64,000 bases of DNA from positions 70,116 through 134,115 of the forward strand of contig OZ257148.1 in the NCBI GenBank assembly GCA_965279285.1, given 5' to 3'. Positions 6,001 to 9,000 of this stretch are shown here, piece by piece. Numbering within the stretch: the stretch's first letter is position 1; each line of letters begins with the position of its first letter. The position numbers are program-made. The DNA is from Gammaproteobacteria bacterium. Lineage in GTDB: Bacteria; Pseudomonadota; Gammaproteobacteria; DSM-16500.

Positions 6001-9000
6001 GGTAAGTAATGCCATAAATTTTTCTTTAGCTTTTTTATTAAAATCCTCAGCTAGGTTATTCCAACGAAATAATGCATGTGTAGACGCATATAAATTTTTT
6101 TGCCAATCAGGAGTATTTTTAACCTCAATTAAATCTTTATTTAAATTGTTAAGCAAAAGAGAGAATGCTTCATTTAATGATTTTTGATAAGGAGTGCTTT
6201 TTTCAGAGCGGACAACTACTTCTCGCGCATCTTGTAATATCCATTCTAGACGACGGATGCGAATCTCTAATAATCGAGCATCAACACTTAACATCGGGAT
6301 AAAATTTGATTCGCTATTTTTTAAGTAGGGATTATAATCACGCCAACGAGACGTTTTAATATCTTTATTGAAGAATTCGAGTCTTGTGTTGCTCATAGTA
6401 ATGTTATCCTAATTACGATAAAAAAATTACATTAACATTAATCTAATGTTATAGGCATCATACTGTCTTTTCAATTAACACCGAACATCAGTTAGTCCTA
6501 ATTTTTTATAGATAGATCGATCGCTTTAGTATCTTTTGTTATTACAGTATATGGTAATGACATACTTATATTATTTGTTATTCTATTATCTATGTTATTA
6601 ACGGTTGTTTTAGCGTCTTCATTTGCATGGACACTGTCGATTGAAGTTATCAAAACTGCTAGTAATAAGAATTGTATGTTGATTTTTGGGAGCTCCATGT
6701 GCTGCTGACATCAATAATTCCTTTATTCGAATAAATGATCAAATCTTATATCACGTCATGCTAATATAGTCTTAATAGCGACTCATTGTCGTTATTAAAA
6801 CAGATTTATTGGATTAATAAAAGCGTATTATTCTTGTTTTTAATGGTTTAGCGAACTGACCTAATATTTTAGCCCATAATGAGATAAAAAAAGTTAGTTA
6901 AAAGTGTTTTTATAATATTTAATATAATTGACGATATGTTTTAAAATGTAAACACACTCCCAAACCCTCACAAATTTCTTGCTGAGAGTTGATTCAGTGC
7001 ACTTCAACTGTCAAACAAATAAAACTCATATTACCGAGACTTTGTTAAACCCAGCTGCGCTCTTTGGATCATTTGCCTTACTTCATTATTTGTATGAATT
7101 GAAGCAAGCTCAACCTCTGGATGCTGTAATGCAAAAACTCTAAAAATTTCATCCGCAAAAGCTTGTCCAACAGAGCTTACCTCTGCAAAATCAAATATAA
7201 CTACTTTAAACAATTCAACTCTTGCTAAAAGACGTTTTGCCTGAGATCTAGAAATCAACTTATCATTTCCATACTGCGCAAGCTTTACGGGAACAACCGT
7301 TTTATTAAACCCATAGTTATCACCCGAAGTAAATTGATCAAATATTTTTTTCTCTGTGCGTGCTGTATGATTATTTAACTTCATCCACACTGCTGTACCA
7401 CTTTTAAATTGACCTCTCTCCAATATCCAATCTTCTGGTTGCCCAAATTCATGAGCAAAATAAACCCCACCAGATAAAATATCATATGAATCAAACATTC
7501 TTGATGTAAAAAATATTCCCTCTCCGCTATGATGACTAGGGTCAGTCGTAAGCTTTCCTTTTGAAAGCTCAAGCAGAGCATGACGTTCATCCAATAAATT
7601 TAACGCGCCCTGAATTTTTTTAAAAATCCCCAAACCATTATCAACTATCATCATTTCAGTAGTTATAGCTGTTTTTCTTAACTCAACAATAATTTCTGAA
7701 CCTCCTGAATGATCAATCGCATTATTAAACATTTCAGTAAATCCATATTGCCAAATACTAATAACATTATCAGGCATAGTATTTAACACTCCCCGTATGT
7801 CTTCTTGCCACACGCGATCTTCTGCAAATCCTGGTATAATTTTATAAGTTTTTCGCCACTCCAGTAATGCTGCAAGCTTATAAGCTTTATTTCTAGTGTG
7901 GCCACTTTCTATCAATGACTTTTCTACAATTAACCTTTTAAGATGCTTATTAACTGCTTGGCGTGTAATACTAAAATGCTCTGCAGCCACTTTGCTTATC
8001 TCTAAAGGATATTTCTCAACATAATCTAAAATAAACTTGCGAATATCCTGGCTTCTTACCCGAATCTTTGTCATTAACCCCCCCGCCTTATTCATAAACA
8101 TTGTCAACTACAGACAAGGACATTGTCAACTTAACCAGGAGGTATTGTCAACTTAATCTACTAACATTGTCAACTTTACACCTGGTTATTGTCAACTTTA
8201 CCATTTAGAAATTCCTTTAAAGCCTTTTATTTCAATATGTTATGATAAAGAATGCCTTCACATACCCCAACCACCTGAACAACCAAATGAACACTTGACC
8301 CCCCCCACCCAAAAATGCTTAAAATAACGCCCAAATCCAACCATCAGCATCTAGGGAGTGACGCATGCAATCAGTAGACCAAATCATCCACGCAAAATGG
8401 CTAATAACCGGTGTCGAAAACCAAGAACCACTAGAGCATCACTCCCTCATTATTGAACACGGTAAAATTAAAGAAATTCTCAGCACCGAATTAACTAAAC
8501 AACGTTATTCATCAACCAACACGCAAAAATTTCCTCATCACGCCATTATGCCCGGCATCATCAACACTCACACCCACGTAGGCATGAATTTATTTCGTGG
8601 TCTTGCCGATGATTTAGCTTTAATGAATTGGCTAAACAATCATATCTGGCCAGCAGAAAAAAAATGGGTTAATCATGAATTTGTTCGCGATGCTTCTCTA
8701 CTCGCTATTGCCGAAATGATACGTAGTGGCACAACGTGTTTTAATGATATGTATTTCTTTTTGCAAGCAACAGCCGAAGCCGCTGATATTGCTGGTATTC
8801 GTGCTCATATTGGTATGACTATCATCGAATTTCCAACCAATTGGGCACAAACTACCGATGAATATTTTGCAAAAGGTATCGAGTTTTATGAACAATACAA
8901 AGGCCATGATCGTATCACCACAACCTTAGCACCACATGCACCTTACACTGTGTCAGATCCTACTTTATTGCGCGTACAAGAAGTCGCCGAAAAATATGAT

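Follow-up and report, generated by a model that had tools for sequence, protein, structure and literature searches.

Relation to known direct-repeat and partner-switching systems

Direct-repeat operator arrays serving winged-helix autoregulators are a known kind of regulatory element, and several described systems can be compared with the one analysed here, namely five phased direct repeats upstream of a solitary gene whose product combines a winged helix-turn-helix (wHTH), a GHKL ATPase and a STAS-like domain. The locus lies in a stretch of 64,000 nucleotides (nt) from a gammaproteobacterial genome (GenBank assembly GCA_965279285.1, contig OZ257148.1, positions 70,116 to 134,115 of the forward strand), hereafter the window. 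It bears a likeness to the 22-base-pair (bp) iterons of R6K (pi/gamma-ori) and to those of RK2 TrfA and pSC101 RepA, in which direct repeats of about 22 bp with variable spacers adjoin a winged-helix gene, and whose initiators autoregulate their own gene, as is predicted here. Unlike these iterons, the present locus is chromosomal and solitary, shows no Rep-family domain, DnaA boxes, AT-rich unwinding element or plasmid and phage homologs, and its repeats carry the putative -35/-10 hexamers of the gene's own promoter. Similarly, ParR on parC (R1) and AspA (pNOB8) bind cooperatively to phased direct repeats over a promoter and autoregulate, which is likewise predicted for our protein; unlike them, it has GHKL and STAS-like domains, lacks an accompanying gene for a partition NTPase or adaptor, and is not plasmid-borne.

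Among chromosomal regulators, the pho boxes of the PhoB/OmpR type resemble the predicted arrangement in that winged helices bind head-to-tail to direct repeats with an 11/22-bp periodicity that overlap or replace the -35 element. However, the present protein has a wHTH of another class at the opposite end of the chain and no receiver domain, and whereas pho boxes activate the genes of a regulon, only the regulator's gene was found to carry this array. An N-terminal winged helix and predicted negative autoregulation are shared with the ArsR/MarR autorepressors; these, in contrast, bind palindromes as dimers, while the present system has 3-5 direct repeats spaced by two turns and a sensor part made of an ATPase and a STAS-like domain. 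The fold and ATP-binding residues of the middle domain and the STAS-like C-terminus recall the SpoIIAB-SpoIIAA and RsbW-RsbV pairs. Unlike in those modules, both partners share a single chain with a DNA-binding domain, the vicinity encodes no sigma factor, and the phospho-serine position is occupied by isoleucine or valine.

From the comparative evidence set out below, we propose that the array is probably the self-contained promoter and operator of its gene, bound head-to-tail by the gene's own winged helix and hence autoregulatory. A literature search by domain name, architecture and motif string returned no description of the family or the site; as far as searched, there is no earlier account of the family, the 13-bp site, its 21/22-bp spacing rule or a partner-switching pair fused to a DNA-binding domain.

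The repeat array in the window

A pattern search located exact copies of ATTGTCAACT on the + strand at 8100, 8122, 8144, 8166 and 8188, in a strict 22-bp spacing, and no sixth exact copy anywhere in the window. At one mismatch or fewer there are 14 matches including the five exact ones, against 6.7 +/- 2.4 expected, the nine one-mismatch copies elsewhere being at chance level. In 200 first-order Markov simulations of the window, equally spaced copies of any 10-mer never exceeded two, as opposed to the five observed. The array is real, well beyond chance and biologically meaningful. Comparison of the copies shows that the conserved unit is longer than the decamer originally reported: on the gene (minus) strand it reads T(A/T/G)(A/T)AGTTGACAAT, that is, 13 bp (TAAAGTTGACAAT) separated by 9-bp spacers. 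The individual elements, all on the minus strand, are:

8100..8200, minus strand: whole array, five 13-bp sites at 22-bp spacing, with homologous arrays in related loci
8188..8200, minus strand: site 1, farthest from the gene, TAAAGTTGACAAT, with TTGACA as candidate -35 element; site 1 of the family always has TTGACA
8166..8178, minus strand: site 2, TAAAGTTGACAAT; its GACAAT is a candidate -10 element for site 1 and its TTGACA a candidate -35 element for site 3
8144..8156, minus strand: site 3, TTAAGTTGACAAT
8122..8134, minus strand: site 4, TTAAGTTGACAAT
8100..8112, minus strand: site 5, nearest to the gene, TGTAGTTGACAAT; the G of the GTTGACAAT core is found 34 nt ahead of the ATG

The spacers are not conserved; the units are 66-80% identical over 41 nt because this span includes the cores, and Tandem Repeats Finder does not report the array since the spacers differ. 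The partial likeness of neighbouring spacers suggests that the array grew by duplication of units. Compared with its relatives, the window holds an unusually regular and long version, with five perfect copies and every interval at 22 bp. These results bear out an earlier note on this DNA, which had described five copies at an exact 22-bp phase, spacers without conservation, and a perfect TTGACA pointing toward the wHTH gene in each copy, followed 18 bp on by the GACAAT of the next; the last of these recurs in a promoter scan, described below.

An RNA element is without support, as no Rfam family matches in 6300-8500, and CRISPR (clustered regularly interspaced short palindromic repeats) is ruled out by units that are far too short. 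Additional targets in the window are not above chance, with 33 matches at three or fewer mismatches against 30 expected; a pair at 16965/16992 was considered as a further target and dismissed, as it sits within a coding region.

Conservation of the array with its gene

The protein database contains more than 8,000 close relatives of the wHTH-GHKL-STAS protein, annotated only as 'DUF4325 domain-containing protein', and a search with the family profile hits 3,314 clusters (50% identity), and for 1,082 of these the match has E <= 1e-30. A genome scan with one genome per species recovered 251 loci, the best 80 of which were used for comparison; these come from Gamma-, Beta-, Alpha- and Deltaproteobacteria, Acidobacteriota and Nitrospirota, nearly all as metagenome-assembled genomes, and encode proteins that are 62-78% identical. 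Related genome loci with enough upstream sequence number 79, and 76 of them carry 3-5 copies of GTTGACAAT (at two or fewer mismatches) on the coding strand with 21/22-bp spacing. These 76 loci represent at least 5 phyla, and arrays precede the gene's relatives in more than 100 bacteria of several phyla. Their last full site typically begins 25-30 nt before the start codon, and the copies come to an end some 20-30 bp short of it. Information content along the alignment defines the family site as TAAGGTTGACAAT, conserved position by position, with spacers lacking conservation and no conserved sequence across loci upstream of site 1.

Within 598 kilobases (kb) of the collected loci, exact GTTGACAAT occurs 149 times, and 146 of these occurrences lie within 200 bp upstream of the gene on the coding strand; two more are slightly farther upstream in one locus, again on the coding strand, and a single stray lies on the opposite strand 4.6 kb downstream. 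Pattern matches in metagenome contigs adjoin a homolog in 26 of 120 cases, to which L286 can be added, where the homolog is cut by the contig end; among viral contigs the figure is 0 of 120. Distant subfamilies (about 35% identity), chosen without regard to their DNA, likewise have phased TTGACAAT or TTGCGAAT sites upstream. On this comparison, the array is the conserved partner of the gene family across phyla, and its sites are conserved with the presumed regulator while the surroundings vary, as would be expected of an autoregulatory operator.

Three phased TTGACAA motifs were also sought in viral and metagenome contigs, where most matches proved to be perfect satellite repeats unrelated to the module. 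Six viral contigs (L110 at 11726-11776, L190, L172, L141, L095 and L147) have three phased TTGACAA with non-conserved spacers and no adjacent homolog; the closest look-alike is L110, whose sites share the TAAAGTTGACAAT flank with no family gene downstream. Such viral sites could serve other regulators as operators or form stacked early promoters.

Several variations on the basic arrangement were seen. In about a dozen loci (e.g. L046, L071 and L078) an extra site runs into the start codon (GTTGnCAATG), so that GTTGnCAAT and the ATG share their AT; many other loci have a degenerate version, GTTGCAAATG or GTTTCCAATG, and this site, set about 7 nt before the start codon, is missing from the window. 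In L322 (2855-3000), upstream of the distant member P0172, which has an NIH helix, eight ATTGACAAT sites form a 33-bp super-repeat of alternating 22/11-bp spacing, which suggests that arrays expand by unit duplication. A large share of the family members lie on contigs of only 1-2 kb with little beyond the gene; metagenome assemblies often break at its borders, which is to be expected of a conserved gene in variable surroundings. An identical 341-aa member, P0165, occurs on six contigs (L323-L328) with the same left flank (YscW, LEA_2, ATP-grasp) and three different right flanks, placing the gene at the edge of a variable region.

Covariation of the recognition helix with the site

The recognition helix follows the pattern (S/T)RQA(V/L)N-x-H throughout the superfamily, where x is residue 43, a lysine (K43) in the window. 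This residue covaries with the base immediately 5' of TTGAC. With lysine or arginine the base is G in 238 sites, A in 37 and a pyrimidine in 4; with leucine it is C in 26 of 35 sites (5 A, 4 G); and with isoleucine, valine or asparagine it is mostly A. At locus level the covariation reaches a Fisher p = 6e-8, not corrected for phylogeny. As a test, two lysine-bearing proteins nested in a distant subfamily of the L/V/I type, P0146 and P0147, were picked from protein sequence before their upstream DNA was fetched; G was found in 9 of their 10 sites. The leucine-bearing AVSLH subfamily has mainly C, together with a partly changed core (CTTGCGAAT mixed with TTGACAAT) and 11/23-bp phasing.

A basic side chain paired with guanine is a common protein-DNA contact. 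The covariation therefore fits a reading of the repeats by the encoded winged helix and would be unexpected if sigma-70 or a host factor alone recognized them. Such coupling between a putative DNA-reading residue and a site base, as yet uncorrected for phylogeny, is what an autoregulatory operator is predicted to display. If the K43-G contact is true, a K43L protein would favour CTTGACAAT over GTTGACAAT, and the wild type the reverse. Whether N or S at residue 42 goes with a TTGAC or TTGCG core was looked at too; this relation is not clean, with P0215 combining N42 and CTTGATnAT sites.

Domain architecture of the encoded protein

The gene and the sequence preceding its start codon are as follows:

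7031..8074, minus strand: gene for a 347-aa protein with a wHTH, a SpoIIAB/RsbW-like GHKL ATPase and a STAS-like DUF4325 domain
8078..8084, minus strand: G7 tract (C7 on the + strand), 3 nt upstream of the ATG, the probable Shine-Dalgarno region

The family alignment places the start codon at the ATG at 8074 and not at an upstream TTG at 8107; homologs have GGGG/GAGG where the window gene has the G7 tract. The winged helix spans approximately residues 1-70, with the recognition helix formed by S35-ITRQAVNKHLKRL plus K43, and gives weak profile matches to ArsR, SdpR, HTH_24 and MarR_2. It is followed by the SpoIIAB/RsbW-like GHKL ATPase (approximately residues 85-250), which in Pfam matches HATPase_c_2 at 25.3 bits, just below the 27.4-bit cut-off, and by the STAS-like domain (approximately residues 259-347), which matches DUF4325 at 2e-13. 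A search of the Protein Data Bank with the protein sequence gave nothing significant. An AlphaFold2 model built from 39 sequences (mean predicted local distance difference test score 74.5) was used for fold searches: the middle domain superposes on SpoIIAB and RsbW (template-modelling scores of 0.66-0.76 normalised to the target), the C-terminal domain has the STAS domains of RsbS and prestin as neighbours, and the N-terminal domain has the winged helices of ArsR, AspA and Z-alpha. The Pfam DUF4325 match, the sub-threshold HATPase_c_2 match and the structural neighbours agree in showing that the label 'wHTH-GHKL-STAS', which the earlier note gave from the sequence alone, is correct.

The ATPase retains E114, N118, D145xGxG149 and G184xG186; across the 39 sequences E114, N118, D145xG147xG149 and G184 never vary, and G186 is kept in at least 90%. 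By sequence, then, the ATP-binding motifs of the GHKL domain are intact, as in partner-switching kinases. The STAS-like domain departs from that pattern: the residue before the invariant G303 is isoleucine or valine and the two preceding positions are variable in the same 39 sequences, and hence the canonical phospho-acceptor Ser/Thr at the start of alpha2 appears not to be conserved, judged from a placement against SpoIIAA S58 made by eye on predicted secondary structure.

Promoter layout and proposed autoregulation

In the window, the promoter scan found TTGACA-18 bp-GACAAT four times in a row, each matching 10 of 12 promoter positions. In the family the layout is asymmetric. Sites 1 and 2 are spaced 21 bp apart in 67 of the 76 loci (88%), which yields TTGACA-17 bp-GACAAT, a near-consensus sigma-70 promoter, and the two elements are almost invariant (TTGACA of site 1 in all loci, GACAAT of site 2 in about 91%). 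For sites 2 and 3 the usual spacing is 22 bp, again seen in 67 of 76 loci, and many loci have GTTGACAAA or GTTGTCAAT (GACAAA, TTGTCA) as site 3, a poor -10 or -35 element. As far as conservation indicates, the sites hold the only conserved -35/-10-like hexamers upstream of the gene. Given that the 13-bp sites alone are conserved, and spacers, upstream DNA and neighbours are not, the gene's promoter is predicted to lie in the array. In view of the 17-bp spacer, the near-invariance of the two distal sites and the poor hexamers of site 3, the family promoter is most likely made up of sites 1 and 2, which would leave the later sites in the leader.

Taking these observations together, we propose the following mode of action. 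One winged-helix domain would bind each 13-bp site (TAAGGTTGACAAT in the family, TAAAGTTGACAAT here). Since the sites are direct repeats two helical turns apart, the protomers would line up head-to-tail on one face of the DNA, with cooperativity provided by the ATPase and STAS-like domains. Because each site has both a TTGACA -35 and a GACAAT -10-like hexamer, two neighbouring sites could constitute a sigma-70 promoter; in most homologs the distal pair with its optimal 17-bp spacer would serve as such, and the remaining sites would fall in the transcribed leader. Protein bound to the sites would then keep RNA polymerase off the embedded -35/-10 elements and repress the gene, and ATP binding or hydrolysis by the GHKL domain, along with its contact with the STAS-like domain, probably tunes this repression.

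Several points weigh against this proposal. The claims on binding and transcription rest wholly on comparative inference, and TTGACA is the universal -35 hexamer, such that part of the conservation could reflect sigma-70 and not the wHTH. All intervals in the window are 22 bp, giving 18-bp spacers, and any neighbouring pair of sites fits as a promoter there. The uncorrected covariation has perhaps 5-7 independent lineages behind it; ten K43 loci have mostly A and not G, and the distant P0215, with an NQH helix, has CTTGATnAT-type repeats that the helix relation does not explain. Furthermore, a regulator of itself only makes no sense alone, and no second target was found in the window or in the 4-kb flanks of homologs.

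If it holds, a large family that is unusually conserved (62-78% identity between Gammaproteobacteria, Acidobacteriota and Nitrospirota) gains a testable cis-element, consisting of a 13-bp site, a 21/22-bp phasing rule, a likely promoter layout and a candidate K43-G contact. It would also provide a case in which a pair of the SpoIIAB/SpoIIAA type, joined to a DNA-binding domain, makes up a solitary unit that regulates itself. Genome annotation could use the array as a reliable marker of the gene's true start and promoter, and synthetic biology would gain a compact promoter-operator that is apparently functional in very different hosts.

Genomic context

All-against-all clustering of open reading frames (ORFs) in 81 loci revealed no conserved operon partner; the recurring ORF 'clusters' proved to be ORFs lying antisense within the gene. 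The nearest neighbours, counted by Pfam, fall into 90 and 92 different families on the two sides, mostly housekeeping. The homologs reside on megabase-size chromosomal contigs amid housekeeping genes, and tblastn found none in 72,556 plasmids or 50,697 phages. Complete genomes with the module include OZ242179.1, OZ252286.1 and NZ_OZ253579.1, and the contig of the window itself measures 2.28 Mb. PADLOC recognized no family at E <= 0.01 for the wHTH protein or for the neighbouring TIR-NACHT protein. Since no neighbour is conserved, plasmid and phage homologs were not found and no PADLOC model matches, the unit of conservation is 'array + gene'. With respect to partner switching, no cognate sigma factor or PP2C phosphatase is a conserved neighbour, and Sigma70_r4_2 occurs in only 2 of 75 downstream neighbours.

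In the window, mtaD, ndk, a NACHT gene and a 66-aa ORF surround the gene, and none of them is beside it in any related locus. The earlier note had drawn attention to the divergent mtaD; given that mtaD recurs in no related locus and that the upstream neighbours of homologs lie on either strand, this link is incidental.

Alternative explanations

The same note had left the choice between iterons and a cooperative operator array. The operator part stands, with phased sites on one DNA face, conservation with the gene and covariation with a residue of its product; the iteron part does not. An iteron reading, or one of centromere-like partition sites, would make the array part of a plasmid or integrated element and the wHTH protein its initiator or centromere binder. 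The 22-bp period, the 3-5 direct repeats and the variable spacers by a wHTH gene do resemble R6K, RK2, pSC101, ParR/parC and AspA, and AspA is among the structural neighbours of the N-terminal domain. Yet neither the protein (Pfam, NCBIfam, fold search) nor its conserved neighbours include a Rep-family or partition ATPase domain, there is no DnaA box within 700 bp of the array (the nearest one-mismatch match, at 7381, is inside the gene, and DnaA-box-like matches in the window are at chance level), and the plasmid and phage collections contain no homolog. The module instead sits amid housekeeping genes on large chromosomal contigs, and its sites always point at the gene from a fixed distance to the start codon. 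Gene content, context, the lack of plasmid and phage homologs and of DnaA boxes, and fixed orientation and distance largely refute this explanation, which we regard as hardly credible. A simpler alternative dispenses with a dedicated binding protein and views the array as a portable stack of sigma-70 promoters ensuring that a gene acquired by horizontal transfer is expressed in whichever host it enters. Across phyla, primary sigma factors recognise TTGACA, the window has four overlapping promoter matches (10 of 12 positions), the first interval in the family supplies the optimal 17-bp spacer, and the gene is solitary in unrelated contexts, all of which would be accommodated. What sigma-70 leaves unexplained is the conserved TAAG flank and the G before TTGACA, the conservation of sites 3-5 despite their often poor promoter quality, the degenerate sites over the start codon, and the covariation of the flank base with residue 43; a pure promoter stack is on balance distinctly unlikely.

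Binding by the protein is retained in another explanation, which differs from autoregulation in taking the array as a platform that nucleates an ATP-dependent head-to-tail filament as the functional state, this filament serving, for example, as sensor or effector of a conflict or addiction module with a single gene, or as a store from which a signal frees the anti-sigma-like domain. We consider this very unlikely, although some features are compatible with it. Protein (62-78% identity) and operator are strongly conserved across phyla while the gene is solitary, and the chain unites SpoIIAB-like and STAS-like domains, pairs of which bind each other in partner-switching systems, with no conserved Ser/Thr at the canonical phospho-acceptor position (I/V before G303). 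Some neighbours are toxin-antitoxin genes, and the neighbour in the window is the TIR-NACHT gene; standalone DUF4325 genes have been reported to be coupled to VapC-like PIN genes (PMC5499597) and to occur in a prophage accessory region (PMC7924643). On the other side, no PADLOC defence model matches, the neighbours are mostly housekeeping genes and not defence islands, and the family is absent from the same plasmid and phage collections. A broader speculation, itself unlikely, is that of a horizontally mobile one-gene module in which the protein polymerises head-to-tail on its own promoter, and the DNA-bound filament, held by contacts between the anti-sigma-like ATPase and STAS-like domains, goes beyond repression and acts as an ATP-driven switch that frees or activates the protein upon cellular insult; it may, for example, be a one-gene immune sensor or an addiction element. 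If true, it would constitute a new architecture, a complete partner-switching pair plus a DNA-binding domain with its own portable promoter-operator. The autoregulatory promoter-operator remains the reading that we prefer.

Other features of the window

Downstream of the wHTH gene, positions 22-6396 on the minus strand encode a 2,124-aa protein with a sub-threshold N-terminal TIR-like domain and a NACHT NTPase; its pairing with the wHTH gene recurs in no related locus. Further away, at 42549-42847, a 66-bp tandem repeat (4.5 copies, 98% identical) includes a GC-rich hairpin (GGTGGGCA...TGCCCACC), and the window's only exact DnaA box, TTATCCACA, lies at 42350, 200 bp upstream of this repeat. 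Closer to the array, the C7 tract at 8078-8084 and a C8 tract at 8299-8306, both on the + strand, have similar contexts (TTAACCCCCCC and TTGACCCCCCC), and the C8 tract falls within the probable promoter region of mtaD. Slippage at either tract could alter expression.

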